A DNA stretch of 64,000 bases from NCBI GenBank assembly GCA_951406725.2, contig OX597814.1, positions 138,260,001-138,324,000 on the forward strand, given 5' to 3'. Origin of the DNA: Octopus vulgaris (Eukaryota). The notes beneath the pieces were generated by a model, which saw only the letters and a program-made list of their open reading frames with translations, was not told where the DNA came from and did not search any database. A program made the position numbers and the translations under genes. How positions within the stretch are numbered: position 1 is the stretch's first letter; each line of letters opens with the position of its first letter. Of the stretch, positions 7,967-43,127 are shown piece after piece.

Positions 7967-8198
7967 TTTACGAAAAAAAAAAAAAAAAAAAGACGAAGAC
8001 AAGTGGTGTACAAAACAAACAGATGTATTAGTATAACGCTCAGGAATAGAAAAGTCTTTTACGTTTCGAACCTATGCTCTTCTGCAGAAAGGCTCGAAAC
8101 GTAAAAGACTTTTTCTATTCCTGAGCATTATACTAATACATCTGTTTGTTTTGTACACCACCTGTCTTCGTCTTTTGTTTTTTTTCATAAACTCTCCC
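7961..8198. mobile_element. Inverted pair of PLE-like 3' ends (hairpin) with an HHR-like motif, flanked by microsatellite
   Basis: ~110-bp arms (7961-8073 and 8090-8198) are reverse complements. The minus strand at 8055-8090 reads TTT CTGCAGA A GAGC ATAG GTTC GAAAC GTA AAAGA. Same family as 16352-16678. Confidence 0.75.
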
Positions 8199-8306
8199 TA
8201 TATATACATACATACATACATACATACATACATACGTAAATGTCGAACGATGAAAATGAGTGTTCAACATTGCCTTGGTGGATAAATTTATTTATTTATG
8301 TATTAA

Positions 8307-8367
8307 GGCTACCATTGGTTTCATGTAAAGAACAAAATATCTTATTATTTTAACAATTATTCAAGCC
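8307..8367 (-). ncRNA. Degenerate type I hammerhead-like motif (U3-A8-type core with one extra base)
   Basis: GGC TTGAATAA T TGT...ACA T GAAA CC AAT GGT A GCC. Homologous to 21000-21051. Confidence 0.5.
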
Positions 8368-8380
8368 GATCACATGGAGA

Positions 8381-8849: not shown

Positions 8850-9012
8850 GAGTACAGGACACTACAAATAAACGTAGAACACAACGAGAAACGAAAACAT
8901 AAAAACAAAAACAAGGAAACGGACTTTTTTTAACAACGAAAAAACAGAGTACAAGACAAACAATACAAGGAATATCCCCTTCATCAGCTGCCCTGGTTCG
9001 ACTCAATGCGTG
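8665..9012 (-). mobile_element. PLE-like remnant carrying GTC-N12-CTGATGA-AGGGG
   Basis: Homologous to 36318-37010(-) and 16722-16900(+). Embedded in TA/TATG repeats. Confidence 0.55.
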
Positions 9013-15676: not shown

Positions 15677-16105
15677 TACATACATACATTATTCTTTTAA
15701 ATTTCCTATTTTATTTTTTCACACGTTCACTTGTATAGGTTTTGTAATAGCACTCCCCGAGAGAACATATTTCAGTGATCAGAAACATGTTGAACCATGT
15801 AAAACGTGAAAGAAAGAAACCTCTTTGTTTCTTGTAATAAATACATCTACAAGCAAAATTTATTCATGGTATTCGATGTTGCTTAACGTCGGTGATCGAA
15901 CGAGAACCGGTGCTTTCAACGTTTCTTTAATATATATATAAAGTAGTTGTATACTGTCAACTTAATGTGACGGTCCCATGAAGGGAATCATACTACTGCT
16001 ATTTAGCCCTAGGAAGCAGCAGCGCTTCCTGTCGGCCTTCACATATTTCCTGTGTCCTTATGTTTGCAAGGGGGAGATGAGCACCTCTACCCAGCTAAGC
16101 CTGCA

Positions 16106-16148
16106 TCCAGAGACTAGTTTCTGAGTCTTTGCTTGTCATCAGTCTGGA
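16106..16148 (-). ncRNA. Minimal type I hammerhead ribozyme motif with canonical core
   Basis: TCCAGA CTGATGA CAAGCAAAGACTCA GAAAC TA GTC TCTGGA: 6-bp helix I, CUGAUGA, GAAA, palindromic ACUAGU helix III and a GUC site. Helix II is poorly paired. Lies in a ~220-bp element (15940-16163) flanked by (TA)n. Confidence 0.75.
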
Positions 16149-16351: not shown

Positions 16352-16677
16352 TGCGAGGTCATTCAACCCTATTATCTCCCCTAATTTCGCTCTTGCGTCT
16401 CATGTTTGATCTTTGACTTCTGGCCGAAATCAGATCGCCATGTTGATTCGCTAGCTTCTGCACGCATATTTTTTCTCTCTCCTTCTTTCTGTGTTTTTTT
16501 TTCTCTGTGTATCTTTCTGTTGAAGAGCGTAGGCTCGAAACATTAAAGACTTGTTTTATTTATATTTCCTGAGCGCCATACTAATACAATTGTTTGTTTG
16601 TATTCCACCTGCCTTCGTCTTTTGTTTATTTCCGTAAACCTGCCTTCGTCTTTTGTCTATTTTCATAAAGCTTCCCG

Positions 16678-20859: not shown

Positions 20860-20999
20860 TCGTCCGGTCATGGAATCGAACCCACTTGGCCTACTGGTTA
20901 GAGTGTTCAGCTTATGATCAGATATATTTTAACAGACACACGCACACAAATACACCCACCCACCCACACACACACATGCACTCTATTTGTGAGTTAACA

Positions 21000-21051
21000 A
21001 GGCTACCATTAGTTTCATGCTAAGAGAAATCTTTCAGCAATTATCAAACCT
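21000..21051 (-). ncRNA. Type I hammerhead motif with U3-A8 core
   Basis: AGGT TTGATAA T TGCTGA AAGA TT TCT C TTAGCA T GAAA CT AAT GGT A GCCT: helices I, II and III all form, with a GUA site. Confidence 0.65.
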
Positions 21052-21216
21052 GCCACATGGAACGTTGGTACTCGTTTTCAAGATAGAAACAAGTATCAAA
21101 GTTCCATGTGGCTGGCTTTCTCGGCATGAAGACAATAGTAGCATTGTTAACTCACAAACAAAGAATATTTACCCACCAATGCAGTGTTGAGCACTCATTC
21201 TCACTGTCCTATATAA

Positions 21217-21277
<61 letters not shown>

Positions 21278-29068: not shown

Positions 29069-29410
29069 CAAGTGTCTTCTACTATAGCCTCGGGCCGACC
29101 AAAGCCTTGTGAGTGGATTTGGTAGATGGAAACTGAAAGAAGCCCGTCGTATATATGTGTATATATATGTATGTATGTGTGTGTGTATGTGTTTGTGTGT
29201 CTGTGTTTGTCCCTCCAACATCGCTTGACAACCGATGCTGGTGTGTTTACGTCCCCGTAACTTAGCGGTTCGGCAAAAGAGTCCGATAGAATAAGTACTA
29301 GGCTTACAAAGAATATGTCCTGAGCTCGATTTGCTCGACTAAAAAGGCGGTGCTCCAGCATGGCTACAGTCAAATGTCTGAAACAAGTAAGAAGGAGTAA
29401 AAAAAAAAAG
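29069..29410 (+). mobile_element. 5'-truncated SINE family A
   Basis: Matches the body and tail of 1751-2165. Confidence 0.85.
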
Positions 29411-29740
29411 AGATATGAACCCTCAAGGCCATACGAATCCCTAAAGGGTCTCAAACGAAAGCGACTCACTTTCAGTTATACTGCATATTGCGTTCACTTT
29501 TTCACATTTTCAGTTATTGGACTGCGGCCATGCTTGAGTATCGCCCGATCAAATTAACCCCAGTGCTTAAATTTAAGCCTAATACTTATTTTGTCGGTCT
29601 CTGTTTTGCCGAACTGCTATATTGCAGTGAAGTAAACAAATTAACACAGGTTATCAACACGCATTTATTAACAAACGGCAGAAGTCACAGAGTTACTCAC
29701 GGGCTGAGAGTTTCGTACATTGGCACTTATCAGATATGTA

Positions 29741-30808: not shown

Positions 30809-31270
30809 TATCTAAATATATGTTGGGACACCGTCTTGAGGAATTTTAGACAAACGAATCGACCCCACAATTAATTTTTTCTTTTAAACTTGTATTTATT
30901 CTGTCGTGCACTTTTGCCGAGCCGCTAAGATATGGAAACGTAAACACACCAACATCGGTTGTCAAGCAGTGGTGGGAGACAAACGTGTGTAGTTGTGTGT
31001 GTGTGTGTGTGTGTGCGTGCGTGTGCGTATGTGTGTGTGGGCATGTGTGTGTGTATGTGTGTCTTTGTGTCTGTGTTTGTCTCTCACCACCACTTGACAA
31101 TCGGTGTTGGTGTGTTTACGTCCACCTAACTTAGCAGTTTGACAAAAGAGAACGATAGAATAAGTACAAATTTAAAAGAAAAAAGTTAATAGTGTGGTCG
31201 ATTCGTTCGATTAAAATTCCTCAAGGCGGTGCCCCAATATGACCACAGTCTGATGATTGAAACAAGTGAA

Positions 31271-35848: not shown

Positions 35849-35902
35849 GAATATATATATATATATATATATCTGTAAATATAATATGTGACAATTATTC
35901 GG

Positions 35903-35969
35903 TAGCCAAGATAAAGTTTCGGATGCCGAGGTGGAAATCCACACCACCATCTCTTCAGTTATCCGGCCA
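35903..35969 (-). ncRNA. Hammerhead-like motif with intact core and shortened helix III
   Basis: TGGCCG GATAA CTGAAGA GATG..GTGGA TT TCCAC..CATC C GAAAC T TTATC T TGGCTA. Confidence 0.5.
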
Positions 35970-37319: not shown

Positions 37320-37640
37320 ATTATATATAAAATTTACAAAAGGGGACAAGAACGCAAACCACACAAAGAGACGACACAAAAAAAAAAAAAAACAGGCAGG
37401 TCATTCGAAGCCTCTAATCTTCAGTCAGGAACCGGATCATCTTAGCAATTTCGGCTGATTAATCCTGATATCGCTCCGATCCGGCCAGCCCCAAGGAAAC
37501 ACTAAGCTACGAGCATTAGATTTCTTGGAAAAAGGATCGAATGTATACGAAACAAAACCGGACGATGCCACACGAATATAAATAAAAGAAACAAAAAATA
37601 AAAATAAAAAACAAGAATAGTAATAACAGGACAGCGGGAG
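37320..37640 (-). mobile_element. PLE-like remnant with permuted HHR-like motif (GAAA..ATC-N10-CTGAAGA)
   Basis: Motif at 37418-37452(-). Homologous to 33180-33595. Confidence 0.55.
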
Positions 37641-37933: not shown

Positions 37934-37984
<51 letters not shown>

Positions 37985-37994
<10 letters not shown>

Positions 37995-38723
37995 AAAGGT
38001 TTGAAAATGCAATTTAAACGATGTTTATTTACTTAACCGGTTTCACTCTTTGTTAAAAAGATTGTCAAAAGTAACATTGAATATTATGGGTTCAAAAAAA
38101 GTTTTTTACATAATTGTCACATTGAATATTATGAATTCAAAAATGTTTTTTTATACATAATTGTCACATTACATGTATAAATATAGTATAAAAAAGTTCA
38201 ATAGTGTGATGAGAATATTTGGAAAAATTGGCAGAAAAGAATAAAACAAATATATTATTGGAAATTTGGTTGCGTTAATTATTGGTTGTCGCAAATTGTC
38301 ACATTACATGTATATATATACAGTCTTTGGTAGAAATGACATGTTAAAGACATAAGGAAGTGTAATAGTTTGGTGAGAAAGCTTGTAATATTGACAGAGA
38401 AAATTAAAATGGATATTTTAGACATCTCAGAATATTTTGAATCGAAGGCGAGAATTTGTTTTTTACTGACCTGTTTGTTTTAGCAGAAAAGTTGAATTGA
38501 GAGAAAAAAGATATGTACCCAATTTGGTTTATACTTCCCCTTCAAGCATCAGTGACTTTGGGGTTATTGGGAGGTGAGTATGCGGGTGTGAATAGATGTG
38601 TCCGTGTGCCTGCTGGTCAGACAGCGTCTGTTTGTCACACACATATATACACACACACACACAACAACAATACACACACACACATAGTATACACACACAC
38701 ACCACATACACACAACACACACA
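37985..38723 (-). repeat. Inverted pseudo-LTR (left arm)
   Basis: Reverse complement of 42311-43050. By eye, 2 substitutions (38116/42919 and 38227/42808) and one homopolymer indel (~38504/42525). Confidence 0.95.
38029..38074 (-). ncRNA. Hammerhead ribozyme motif (U3-A8) in left pseudo-LTR
   Basis: Exact reverse complement of 42961-43006. Confidence 0.7.
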
Positions 38724-40916
38724 AGAGGACTAAAATTCACCCCAACTCCGCAATACCCTAACCTGAGGGAAATACAGGATGACATCTCACACTTTTGCAG
38801 AAAATTACGCCTCACAGAGGAATTCTTTGACAGGAAAACTAATAATAACGACGAATCAATGGTCCGTAACAAAAGCAACTATAATCCCATAAAAGGCAAA
38901 AACAAAACCTTAGACAAATTTTGCGATTACATCTCAAACTTCCCTTATGGTGAACTCCCACAACCTAAACTCAAACCCAACACCAGTAAAAGAGAATGGG
39001 AAATCATACATACGCTACGAGACAATCACAACGTCACAATAAAGGAAGCTGATAAGGGTAGTACGGTCGTTGTTATGAATACTGAGCAATATAAAAACTC
39101 TGTATCTCTCCTTTTAGAGGATACCACATACTATGAGAGAGTAGTCGACTACCAGCAATCCAAAACAATGACCAAACTGAAGGCACTCATTTACCAACAC
39201 CGGAATGACTTGACAGCAAAGGAATGCGACTACATTACTAAATTTAATTGCAAAACCAGCACACTCTATGGGCTTCCAAAAATACACAAGAGTCAAATTA
39301 TCACAGAAGCTTGCAAAAAGTCCACTTCAACCTGCATCACTATACCACATCCCACTGATCTCAAACTGAGACCAATAGTGGCAGGCCCAAGTTGTGAAAC
39401 ACACAGACTTAGCAACTTTATAGATATCATCTTAAAGCCAATACTGAAACACATTCCAAGTATTGTAAGAGATGACCTGGACCTATTAAATCATCTCCCC
39501 AAACATGCCGATAAAGACACCTTAATCGTTTCTTTTGATGTTATTAATCTTTACACCACAATCCCACATGAATATGGACTGGAAGCCATTAAATTCTGGC
39601 TGGATAAATATCCCAATGAGATCCCGGAAAGAATTAAAAAAGAATTCATAATTGAGGGCCTCAAATTTATTCTGCAAAACAACTTCATGTATTTCCACAA
39701 CAACACTTACAGACAGGTCTCAGGAACTGCAATGGGTACGAAAGTTGCACCTACCTATGCAAACCTGGTGATGGCCTACCTGGAATCACATATCTATGAA
39801 AAATCCAAATATAAGTACGGCCAGTCTTTCCACAAATACCTGTTGGAGAACTGGAAACGCTACTTAGATGATTGCCTCATCCTATGGTCCCACACACTCG
39901 ACCAACTTAAAGACTTCAAAAACCTTATCAACAGTGTTAATAACAACATTCAATTCACAATGGAATATAGTCAGGACCAACTCCCTTTTCTTGACATCCT
40001 AATCATTAAAAAAGGCGTCAACATTGAAACTGACATCCATTACAAACCCACTGACTCTAAACAATACCTTCTATTCACCTCCAATCACCCAAAACACACA
40101 AAGACAAATATCCCCTTCAACCTAGCGAGAAGAATCTGCACTATTGTCTCAAATGACACAACACGAAATAGAAGACTCCGGGAACTAAGGGCAATTCTTC
40201 TCGAAAGACATTACCCGGCATCACTAGTAGACAACGGAATAGAACGGGCCAAATCAATCAACATTCAAGACCTACGAAAACCCAAACACATCCACAGTTC
40301 AGTAAATAGCCTCCCCTATCTCTCAACACACAACCCAAGGAATGCAGAAGCTTACACTATTATATACAACAACATTCCACAACTAAATCAAGACCCACGC
40401 CTGAAAAAAATACTGGCAGCTCATAAAATAATAAAAAGTAAGAGACAACCTAAATCCCTAAAAAACCTCCTCACCAACGCAAAATTACACAACACAAACC
40501 CACCGCCCACCATCAAAAAATGTGGTCGCCCCAATTGCAAGACCTGCATCCACCTCATTGAGGGATCGTCGTACAAGTTCCACTCGGGACACACATTCAT
40601 CATAAAAAATAATTTCACGTGCGCATCAAAAAATTTACTCTACGTCATAAGGTGTGAAGGATGCCACGAAGACTACATAGGGCAAACGAGCCTTACCCTC
40701 AGAGAAAGAATGACAGTTCACCGACAACAACTGAGGGACCCCTCCACAAGACAGATACCACTAAGTGGACACTTAGACCTTTGTGCACACAATAAGTCCC
40801 CCAAATTCTTAGTCTTCCCACTATACCAATGCTCGGACAACACCACAGACCAAACACGAATAAATAAGGAAAGTAATCTTATTCAAAAATACAGACCACA
40901 ACTAAACATACTCTAA
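38724..40916 (+). CDS. Penelope-like reverse transcriptase + GIY-YIG endonuclease (N-terminally truncated; first ATG at 38859)
   Basis: PLE motifs RGLKFTPTP..FCRKLRL (in frame upstream of the ATG), KEADKG, YGLPKIHK, LRPIV, SFDVINLYT, GTAMGTKVAPTYANL, WKRYLDD, LPFLD and HYKPTD. Cys linker CGRPNCKTC. GIY-YIG region LLYVIRCEGCHEDYIGQT..RERMTVHR..GHL. No internal stops. Confidence 0.95.
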   Translation, partial: RGLKFTPTPQYPNLREIQDDISHFCRKLRLTEEFFDRKTNNNDESMVRNKSNYNPIKGKNKTLDKFCDYISNFPYGELPQPKLKPNTSKREWEIIHTLRDNHNVTIKEADKGSTVVVMNTEQYKNSVSLLLEDTTYYERVVDYQQSKTMTKLKALIYQHRNDLTAKECDYITKFNCKTSTLYGLPKIHKSQIITEACKKSTSTCITIPHPTDLKLRPIVAGPSCETHRLSNFIDIILKPILKHIPSIVRDDLDLLNHLPKHADKDTLIVSFDVINLYTTIPHEYGLEAIKFWLDKYPNEIPERIKKEFIIEGLKFILQNNFMYFHNNTYRQVSGTAMGTKVAPTYANLVMAYLESHIYEKSKYKYGQSFHKYLLENWKRYLDDCLILWSHTLDQLKDFKNLINSVNNNIQFTMEYSQDQLPFLDILIIKKGVNIETDIHYKPTDSKQYLLFTSNHPKHTKTNIPFNLARRICTIVSNDTTRNRRLRELRAILLERHYPASLVDNGIERAKSINIQDLRKPKHIHSSVNSLPYLSTHNPRNAEAYTIIYNNIPQLNQDPRLKKILAAHKIIKSKRQPKSLKNLLTNAKLHNTNPPPTIKKCGRPNCKTCIHLIEGSSYKFHSGHTFIIKNNFTCASKNLLYVIRCEGCHEDYIGQTSLTLRERMTVHRQQLRDPSTRQIPLSGHLDLCAHNKSPKFLVFPLYQCSDNTTDQTRINKESNLIQKYRPQLNIL

Positions 40917-41049
40917 CATACCCCCTGGGCACACATCCAGAGCAGGCACACAGGGGCACGCGCACACTCACAGCATATCGTGCGGGTGGGCACATGCGCG
41001 CATCGGCACGCATAGGACACACTAGCGGGCATTGACCGCACACATACGT

Positions 41050-41326
41050 GGCACGCACACGCATGCATTATATATATGTAGGTTATGTATGTGTGTGAGT
41101 GTTGTGTGTGTGTGTGTGAGTGTGCACGTTGTGTGTGTGTGTGTGCGCGTGTGTTTATGTGTGTGTGTGTGTGTGCACTGTGTGCGTGTGTGTATGTGTG
41201 TGTGTGTGCGCGCGTTGTGTGTGTGTGTGCACGTGTGTATATATGTGTGTGTGTGTGCGTGTGTGTGTGTATGTGTGTGTGTGTGAGCATTGTGTACGAG
41301 TGTATGTATTTACATGTGTATTTGTT

Positions 41327-41360
<34 letters not shown>

Positions 41361-42159
41361 CTGTGTGTGTATATGCATGGTATGTGTGTATATGTGAGTA
41401 CATTGTTTGTGTGTGTGTGCGGTATGTAGAGATATATTTGAGTGTGTACACTATAGGTTTGTATTTTTTGTGTGTGTGGGTGTGTGTGTGTGAATTTTAT
41501 ATATATATGTGTGTGTATGTGTGTGAAAAAATATATGTATGTGCATGTATGTATGTATGTATATGTGTATATATATATATATATGTGTATATATATATAT
41601 GTGTGTGTGTATGTGTGTGTGTGTATATATATTTTCATGTATATGGGTGTATAAACATGTGCATTATTTGCATGCGCATTGTGTATATGTATATTGTATG
41701 TATGTGTATTGTATATGTATGTGTACAATTAAGTGTATATATGTGTGTATGTGTGCATTGTATATATGTATATTGTAAGTGTGCTATATATACATGAATA
41801 CATGTATATACGTTGCGTGTATATATATGTATGCATTGTGTATGTATGTTATGTGTGTGTGTGTCTATATATTTTATATGTATGCGTACGTGTATGTGTA
41901 TGCATTGTATGTATGTATATTGTGTGTATATGTGGTATATCTATGTATGTGTATGTAAACACTATTTATATGTATATATGTATATATGTATATGCATTGT
42001 CTATATATATATATATTATATGTATGTATTGCGTATGTATATTGCATGCATATATTGTGTATGTGTATTATATACATGCTGTGTATGTGTATTGTATGTG
42101 TATATATATGCTAGGTGTATTTGTGTGATATTTATATTATGTATATATGTGTGCGTGTG

Positions 42160-42196
<37 letters not shown>

Positions 42197-42400
42197 GTGT
42201 GTGTATGTTTTATATATGTGTGTATATTATATATAAATACATGTTATATTTGTGTGCTGTGTGTATATATTATATATGTGGGTGCGTTGTGTGTGTGTGT
42301 GTTCTGTGTGTGTGTGTGTTGTGTGTATGTGGTGTGTGTGTGTATACTATGTGTGTGTGTGTATTGTTGTTGTGTGTGTGTGTGTATATATGTGTGTGAC
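41050..42400. repeat. Compound imperfect (TG)/(TA) low-complexity tract in the PLE 3' UTR
   Basis: Lies between the ORF stop and the pseudo-LTR. Its distal ~90 bp is copied in the left arm. Confidence 0.85.
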
Positions 42401-43050
42401 AAACAGACGCTGTCTGACCAGCAGGCACACGGACACATCTATTCACACCCGCATACTCACCTCCCAATAACCCCAAAGTCACTGATGCTTGAAGGGGAAG
42501 TATAAACCAAATTGGGTACATATCTTTTTTTCTCTCAATTCAACTTTTCTGCTAAAACAAACAGGTCAGTAAAAAACAAATTCTCGCCTTCGATTCAAAA
42601 TATTCTGAGATGTCTAAAATATCCATTTTAATTTTCTCTGTCAATATTACAAGCTTTCTCACCAAACTATTACACTTCCTTATGTCTTTAACATGTCATT
42701 TCTACCAAAGACTGTATATATATACATGTAATGTGACAATTTGCGACAACCAATAATTAACGCAACCAAATTTCCAATAATATATTTGTTTTATTCTTTT
42801 CTGCCAACTTTTCCAAATATTCTCATCACACTATTGAACTTTTTTATACTATATTTATACATGTAATGTGACAATTATGTATAAAAAAACATTTTTGAAT
42901 TCATAATATTCAATGTGATAATTATGTAAAAAACTTTTTTTGAACCCATAATATTCAATGTTACTTTTGACAATCTTTTTAACAAAGAGTGAAACCGGTT
43001 AAGTAAATAAACATCGTTTAAATTGCATTTTCAAACCTTTTTTCATATAT
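42311..43050 (+). repeat. 3' pseudo-LTR (right arm)
   Basis: See left arm. Contains short internal repeats (AATGTGACAATT), the HHR and AATAAA at 43006. Confidence 0.95.
42961..43006 (+). ncRNA. Minimal type I hammerhead ribozyme with compensatory U3-A8 core
   Basis: TTACTT TTGACAA T CTTTTT AAC AAAGAG T GAAA CC GG T T AAGTAA: 6-bp helix I, U.U plus 6-bp helix II, palindromic ACCGGU helix III. Predicted cleavage after 43000 (GUU). Sense to the ORF. Confidence 0.72.
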
Positions 43051-43083
43051 AATCCCACTCGTGCGATACCCCACAACTCAACT

Positions 43084-43127
<44 letters not shown>

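Follow-up and report, generated by a model that had tools for sequence, protein, structure and literature searches.

The 52-base minus-strand motif near position 21,000 of the window (the whole 64,000-nucleotide stretch of Octopus vulgaris DNA analysed here) is quite probably a dimer-type minimal hammerhead, located in the 3′ pseudo-LTR of an old Penelope-like element (PLE) family that would belong to the Hydra clade and whose source elements would already have carried U3-A8 in place of C3-G8, the copy itself being predicted to be inert. When we re-read the minus strand from 21051 to 21000, the letters were exactly those given by an earlier reading made from the sequence only. They follow the type I order N3-U-G-A-N-N8-A, GAAA and UH, with a Watson-Crick 3-8 pair and with A as H17 (Table 1), and hammerhead numbering predicts a cut between 21004 and 21003. 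The canonical G10.1-C11.1 closing pair is absent and U.U stands instead. Nor is an unpaired base inserted between 9 and 10.1 together with G10.1-C11.1; the U.U is symmetrical, a state also seen in the Hydra clade and in many motifs of Neptune type. Helix III is self-complementary at eight of its nine positions, with a self-duplex of −8.2 kcal/mol in the majority form of the family versus −3.6 kcal/mol in the 21-kb copy. As a monomer, the 21-kb motif has a hammerhead fold of −4.1 kcal/mol versus a minimum of −8.7 kcal/mol (z 0.70), which is expected of a dimer-type motif but lends it no support.

Table 1. Features of the 21-kb motif, its locus, the second family copy and family A, the Neptune-type PLE used for comparison.
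Feature	Position	Strand	Details
Type I minimal hammerhead motif, U3-A8 core and U10.1.U11.1	21000..21051	-	52 bases; sequence read, descriptor
Helix I, 5′ strand	21048..21051	-	Partner 21000-21003; 4 bp including one U.G (U2.1.G1.1)
Core U3-U4-G5-A6-U7-A8-A9 (UUGAUAA)	21041..21047	-	U3 = 21047, A8 = 21042
U10.1.U11.1 mismatch, 6-bp helix II and variable loop 21024-21033	21017..21040	-	U10.1 = 21040, U11.1 = 21017
Helix II strands	21034-21039 with 21018-21023	-	6 bp
G12-A13-A14, 9-nt near-palindromic helix III (21005-21013), A17	21004..21016	-	GUA triplet, A17 = 21004
Left arm, inverted 5′-truncated copy of the family 3′ end	20986..21079	-	blastn, comparison of arms
Loop where the arms meet head-to-head	21080..21085 (about)		Folding, contig alignment
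Right arm, 5′-truncated copy, full 3′ end, then (TA)n	21086..21218	+	blastn, contig alignment
Second family copy, microsatellite-flanked	8236..8378	-	Hammerhead 8307-8367: core UUGAAUAA, U.U, helix III ACCAAUGGU
Family A motif: U3-A8, U.U, 6-nt palindromic helix III	42961..43006	+	3′ repeat, intact PLE
Identical family A motif in inverted 5′ repeat	38029..38074	-	Arms 37984-38723 and 42311-43051
Intact 742-codon RT and C-terminal GIY-YIG frame, CX2-5CxxC linker	38688..40916	+	Neptune-type PLE

When the type-I descriptor was relaxed by leaving positions 3 and 8 free, it reported five matches on the two strands of the window: 21047, 8364 and 38068 on the minus strand, 42967 on the plus strand, and a poor one at 51211. 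The first four combine U3-A8 with U.U. Block-wise dinucleotide shuffles (n = 40) yielded 0.025 U3-A8 matches per window and none with U.U, and the U3-A8/U.U motif, present four times in the window, is therefore not a product of chance. An Rfam scan (E ≤ 5) had no hammerhead family among the 150 of its 238 matches that were listed, which were repeat-driven and of miRNA type; below threshold were a weak U6-like match at 62576-62628 and a 5S-like one at 15838-15937.

The motif lies in the left one of two arms arranged head-to-head. This arm lacks the final ~58 nt of the family 3′ end (the published tail measures 30-40 nt; PMC8557442, available part), stops beside a (TG)n tract and could form a distal helix I (21054-21057 with 20988-20991). 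In the right arm a 20-nt deletion near 21118 has taken out the core, and GAAA and helix III have decayed. A decayed inverted partner had been proposed at about 21110-21215; it is real and larger than claimed, and 60 of 74 aligned letters are identical between the arms. In two of the four sequencing runs described below, a 188-nt contig (21002-21189, four differences) bridges the arm junction, so that the hairpin is no assembly artefact, and the depth at the junction is 16 to more than 60 times below that at the core, which makes the hairpin particular to this locus or to a few. An inverted 5′-truncated copy placed head-to-head, with a tail at one end only, is the usual form of a PLE insertion in the available parts of PMC8557442 and PMC3846280, and this form was found at 21 kb, where the pair is also flanked by microsatellites. 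Minus-strand read-through RNA is predicted to fold into a long hairpin (−100.8 kcal/mol, z −10.2) in which most of the motif pairs with its antisense partner. Because of the coreless partner, this fold-back and the weakened helix III self-duplex, the locus is likely an inert, dead insertion. The window has further short inverted-repeat elements at 30820-31240, 29225-29657 and 62293-62410, and another head-to-head hairpin at 7988-8176, whose arms are 90% alike.

The sequence-only reading had also named a homologue at 8307-8367 with a UUGANAA core. The homology was confirmed (blastn E 9e-11; 59 of 74 aligned letters as in the left arm), and so were U3, U.U and GUA, but the core has eight nucleotides (UUGAAUAA) and therefore does not literally fit UUGANAA. 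Two further 8-nt cores were seen at other loci in the contig alignment, with G or C where the 8.3-kb copy has U. The 8-nt cores may be read as U3-A8 with an extra A after A6 and with N7 free; one of the three can be read as U3.G8 plus the extra A as well. An insertion after A6 (A6a) is listed as a natural hammerhead variant of low activity in the available part of Perreault et al. (2011; PMC3088659).

To describe variation across the family we aligned contigs of four runs (from 24; four organism labels) to positions 20972-21216 at 80% likeness. The numbers aligned per run were 795, 1107, 756 and 1070, and with 756-1107 contigs per run the family is an old, abundant repeat. Core coverage, estimated from counts and shares, was ~67-86 contigs per run, and because the four runs have loci in common, they do not sample the family independently. 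Of the 90 variant rows 40 were listed, for contigs at least 80% alike, and none of these affected U3, U4, G5, A6, A8, A9, U10.1, U11.1 or GAAA, and there was no C3 or G8 row. All rows listed are at least 31 letters from the alignment end, possibly by a ranking rule; if they are ranked by this distance, the bound on G8 rests on some 10-13 contigs per run and that on C3 on some 4-7. The listed variation sits on N7 (2-9%), loop II and helix II. One C-G pair of helix II has U on one side in 46-49% and A on the other in 38-48%, and in the 8.3-kb copy, the one copy in which both sides of the pair are seen together, it is U-A. Helices I (4 bp) and II (6 bp) can form and change compatibly among copies, and majority letters restore G-C at both wobbles of the 21-kb copy (21048, C in 49-57%; 21011, 78-83%). 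Cores that could be read directly in other copies had U3 in two of two cases where it was visible and A before A9-U10.1 in three of three. The loose contig ends fell into two subfamilies (27-44 and 19-30 contigs per run). Both had U-GAAA and a palindromic helix III, position 17 was A or U, never G, and the ends behind 21203-21214 ran into (TA)n-type tracts in all four runs. As no C3 or G8 was among the rows listed, as the helix II changes are compatible and as the directly read cores agree, the family state is likely U3-A8, received from the source elements. A CUGANGA consensus, named in advance as the sign that both changes are decay, was not seen among the rows listed from the four runs, and the pair changes in helix II are compatible with the fold.

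The second family in the window, family A, is a young intact Neptune-type PLE at 37984-43088, typed by the definition given in the available part of PMC8557442. Its ~740-nt inverted arms are near 100% identical; it has a ~38-nt tail at the right end only, a microsatellite-rich 3′ spacer and (TA)n flanks. The family A protein matches one from Octopus bimaculoides at 83%, the sole eukaryote-named match among the 120 listed. A PDB sequence search with this protein returned 0 matches, and viral scans with the protein and its alignment found no relative; a pattern scan of viral contigs gave 21 matches in 19 loci, in none of which helix I or II reached 3 bp, and these were set aside as chance. CpG decay is rejected as the origin of the family A A8, since the repeats are near-identical and the ORF is intact. 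That the 21-kb family is unrelated to this element was upheld: blastn between the two was empty at E ≤ 1, word size 4 produced merely short chance-level matches, and helix III is of the 9-nt Hydra type at 21 kb versus the 6-nt Neptune type at 42961. The recurrence of a UUGANAA-type core with U3-A8 and U.U in the 42961 motif was likewise found, as the descriptor match at 42967.

An alignment of the family A protein with 29 relatives was used to fetch 86 PLE-related loci. The descriptor found 48 matches in 40 of these loci, versus ~2.7 per shuffled pass, and a pattern pass over 22 flanks added L021, L022 and L102. After leaving out likely chance or wrong-strand matches (L034, L051, L059, L064 and the second L053 match) and near-duplicate loci (L092, L097, L105), 36 non-redundant loci of other organisms remained: 30 have C3-G8 and six U3-A8, with U.U accompanying U3-A8 once. 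In the 11 closest relatives of family A (within L021-L031 and L099-L103), U.U occurs in 6/11, U3-A8 in 2/11 and both in one (L031). When family A is added, the 3-8 pair is C-G in nine and U-A in three of 12 motifs and is never unpaired; the overall covariation score of 0.855 was reached in none of 500 shuffles, and slid controls scored 0.07-0.17. A FastTree tree of 40 RT sequences shows the U3-A8 loci scattered, which indicates that the swap has occurred repeatedly among the PLEs of many hosts, and the neighbours of family A (L022 and L023, support 0.89) are C3-G8. ORF GC was 0.336 in the six U3-A8 loci versus 0.386 in the 30 C3-G8 loci (one-sided P 0.026, uncorrected for relatedness); an AT-bias as the source of U3-A8 is a weak idea, and the GC of family A, 0.40, runs against it. 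A covariance model built from the 12 Neptune-type motifs did not detect the 8.3-kb copy and scored the 21-kb motif at 11.9 bits (E 2.9), and with this low score the 21-kb family is not Neptune-like in detail; its sequence had a best E of 0.012, AT-rich noise, against the 86 loci. At L031:3851-3903, a Neptune-type PLE of another organism combines U3-A8 with U.U, and its core and the base of helix II are near those of the 21-kb family. Loci L099-L105 and the proteins P0021, P0031 and P0051 are eukaryotic PLE sequences in bacterial genome bins of animal symbionts and are likely host contamination. The long PLE-like RTs of loci L060, L077, L088, L090, L092 and L096 group together with good support, and the hammerheads of this clade are of the monomer type, with helix III long and stable.

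The proposal that U3-A8 is a recurrent feature of PLE ribozymes in this genome, and not random decay, held in part. Decay is made unlikely by U3 and A8 being common to two diverged copies and to both family A repeats, by the missing C3 and G8 among the 40 of 90 rows listed and by the 3-8 covariation in the 12 related motifs. The swap does recur, in two families, but it is neither general nor genome-specific. It is not general, as the same window also has C3-G8 remnants and the published Hydra-1_oBim is C3-G8. It is not special to this genome, as six of the 36 PLE loci of other organisms have it and it was published in 2014; and U.U does not belong to a new octopus variant, being a clade trait that published tables already show. 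The C3-G8 remnants of the window are all imperfect, and the four best-preserved motifs there are U3-A8.

Two decayed C3-G8 remnants were recognized on the minus strand: 16106-16148 (19.7 bits), with a 6-bp helix I, a palindromic helix III and a broken helix II, and 35900-35965 (at 35958); both are near a (TA)n tract. A third repeat family of minimal hammerhead layout (7988-8176 and 16513-16624, with matches at 8068, 8095 and 16520) has C3-G8, an extra A, G10.1-C11.1, no loop III and, at both loci, C or U at position 6, which could be an A6 variant or decay. At 8987 and 36659 on the minus strand, CUGAUGA precedes a short purine-pyrimidine hairpin, and GAAA is missing; this pair resembles the octopus Naiad 'half core' in File S1 of Craig et al. 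(2021), as far as that file was available. A repeat family at 37424 (minus), 33493 and 35641 (both plus) has CUGANGA (N = A, G or U) with, about 12 nt on, GAAUGACC and not GAAA.

If the 21-kb family cuts as a dimer, the near-palindromic helix III segments of two same-sense copies in one RNA, or of two RNAs, would pair. With U3-A8, the Watson-Crick tertiary contact that places residue 8 would be retained, U10.1.U11.1 would replace G-C beneath the G12-A9 and A13-A8 stack, and cutting after A17 of GUA might be slow or helped by an element protein. U3-A8 itself could be the product of two transitions with U3.G8 in between, once in the 21-kb and once in the Neptune-type (38-43 kb) family; the swap likely arose twice, given that an intact PLE of Neptune type carries the 42961 motif. 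The fold might instead have been kept with catalysis largely lost, the motif now being a structural or protein-binding signal whose core changes reflect relaxed selection. There is published ground for this: the hammerhead of an Anolis PLE cut only with protein, its cutting was dispensable for in vitro insertion and RNA ends were absent at the site (Frangieh et al., 2024; PMC11167929, available part), metazoan min-HHRs cut poorly (PMC4209133, available part), and A6 insertions, whose low activity was noted above, would be present in the three 8-nt cores. Yet the 3-8 pair is Watson-Crick in 12/12 related motifs, G17 was unseen and U4, G5, A6, G12, A13 and A14 are invariant in the 40 of 90 rows listed; an invariant core, 3-8 pairing and an absent G17 are constraints of catalysis, and we consider its loss unlikely.

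PLE origin and Hydra membership would follow from the architecture, as no RT or endonuclease remnant was linked to the family: a tblastn search with the protein of family A recovered nothing but family A itself, and both copies end 15-35 nt upstream of the motif. The RT and EN of the Hydra clade are marked by RWK and DKT motifs, a CxCX5C linker and the absence of CCHH. The family may be a non-autonomous, retrozyme-like or SINE-like derivative with a borrowed PLE 3′ end, which we regard as decidedly improbable. The copies seen are all short and ORF-less, depth falls ~20-fold 30-35 nt upstream of the core, and animal retrozymes have been argued to derive from PLE pLTRs (bioRxiv 2026.07.22.740005, available part). 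However, both loci are free of a tandem array, the fall in depth coincides with the hairpin junction, where the 21-kb locus leaves family collinearity, and the hammerhead is of the minimal PLE type, not of the canonical retrozyme type.

Rather than twice, U3-A8 with U.U might have arisen once and reached both families by common descent or by exchange of 3′ ends. U.U is indeed found in both families and in 6/11 Neptune-type relatives, and the L031 core and helix II base are much like those of the 21-kb family, but homology outside the core was not found between the families, helix III has 6 nt in all 12 Neptune-type motifs and 9 nt at 21 kb, and the nearest family A relatives, L022 and L023, are C3-G8, so that we give a shared origin very little weight. 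Decay of a canonical C3-G8 hammerhead after insertion is scarcely credible: the family copies have changed most often from C to T and from G to A, the 21-kb copy has two other decayed pairs and a C3 minority is possible beyond the rows listed, but both changes are common to two copies ~20% diverged and to cores at other loci, G8 is absent among those rows and intact family A has U3-A8 in both repeats.

Returning to a catalytic PLE hammerhead with U3-A8 as its family state, there is a slim chance that two unrelated octopus PLE clades converged on U3-A8 with U10.1.U11.1, one subfamily having spread with an extra A after A6. If so, a host-linked pressure (AT-biased mutation, or cephalopod RNA editing at A8) would tune the ribozymes down, with selection keeping the 3-8 geometry and allowing slow, protein-assisted cutting. 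Apart from its origin, the family provides a natural double core variant, triple in one subfamily, in many genomic copies, which could be used to test how much core change a hammerhead tolerates and whether cutting is under selection in PLE hammerheads. Families of this kind escape descriptors that demand CUGANGA and G10.1-C11.1, and PLE hammerheads are consequently undercounted.

The closest published layout is that of the Hydra clade. The available part of Craig et al. (2021; PMC8557442, File S2) holds 25 Hydra-clade families, with U.U in 14 and a 9-nt helix III in 19; all 25 are C3-G8, the descriptor used there having been canonical, and nearly all insert in (TA)n. Like hammerheads of this clade (e.g., Penelope-1_HM), the 21-kb family is type I, has U10.1.U11.1 and lies near the 3′ end beside (TA)n, and like many of them it has UG..CA at the base of helix II; the Hydra-type layout, compared by eye with File S2, and the (TA)n bias were both found. 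For Penelope-13_HM an inverted 5′-truncated copy is noted there, as at 21 kb, and Hydra-1_oBim of O. bimaculoides has a 9-nt helix III equal, by eye, to the 21-kb majority form, but differs in lacking U.U, in being C3-G8 and in its helix I and II sequences. Unlike the Hydra-clade families of that table, the 21-kb family has U3-A8 and, in one subfamily, an extra core base. With the Neptune-type hammerheads it shares U.U (6/11 of L021-L031 and L099-L103) and U3-A8 (2/11), but not the 6-nt palindromic helix III, its own having 9 nt, and sequence homology was not found between them. The collection made by Lunse and colleagues in 2017 is reportedly the largest of such hammerheads and is cited in PMC6765202 as evidence for dimers; its alignments may contain U3-A8 together with U.U, a combination found neither in the literature seen nor in the available parts of the tables compared here. 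This combination and its likely independent appearance in two clades of one host may be unreported; U3-A8 and U.U are each already in print, and the motif represents no new class or mechanism of ribozyme. U3-A8 is described from Cercyon PLE hammerheads of Schistosoma mansoni (~1,300 matches, low dimer activity), and of the 56 rows of Fig. S3 two are U3-A8; these lack loop III, have an extra base and pair 10.1 with 11.1 in Watson-Crick fashion, and U.U is confined to two rows with C3-G8 (Hydra, D. willistoni) (Cervera and De la Pena, 2014; PMC4209133, available part). The 21-kb family resembles Cercyon in its U3-A8 covariation, predicted dimer, mostly single truncated copies and close inverted pairs, and differs from the Schistosoma U3-A8 rows in having U.U. 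In the available part of Perreault et al. (2011; PMC3088659), natural U3-A8 is active in vitro, as cited there from earlier work, and U10.1-U11.1 is the best-tolerated mismatch and a natural variant; U3-A8, U10.1-U11.1 and A6a occur separately there, whereas the 21-kb family joins U3-A8 and U.U, and in one subfamily the extra A, in the core of a putative retroelement.
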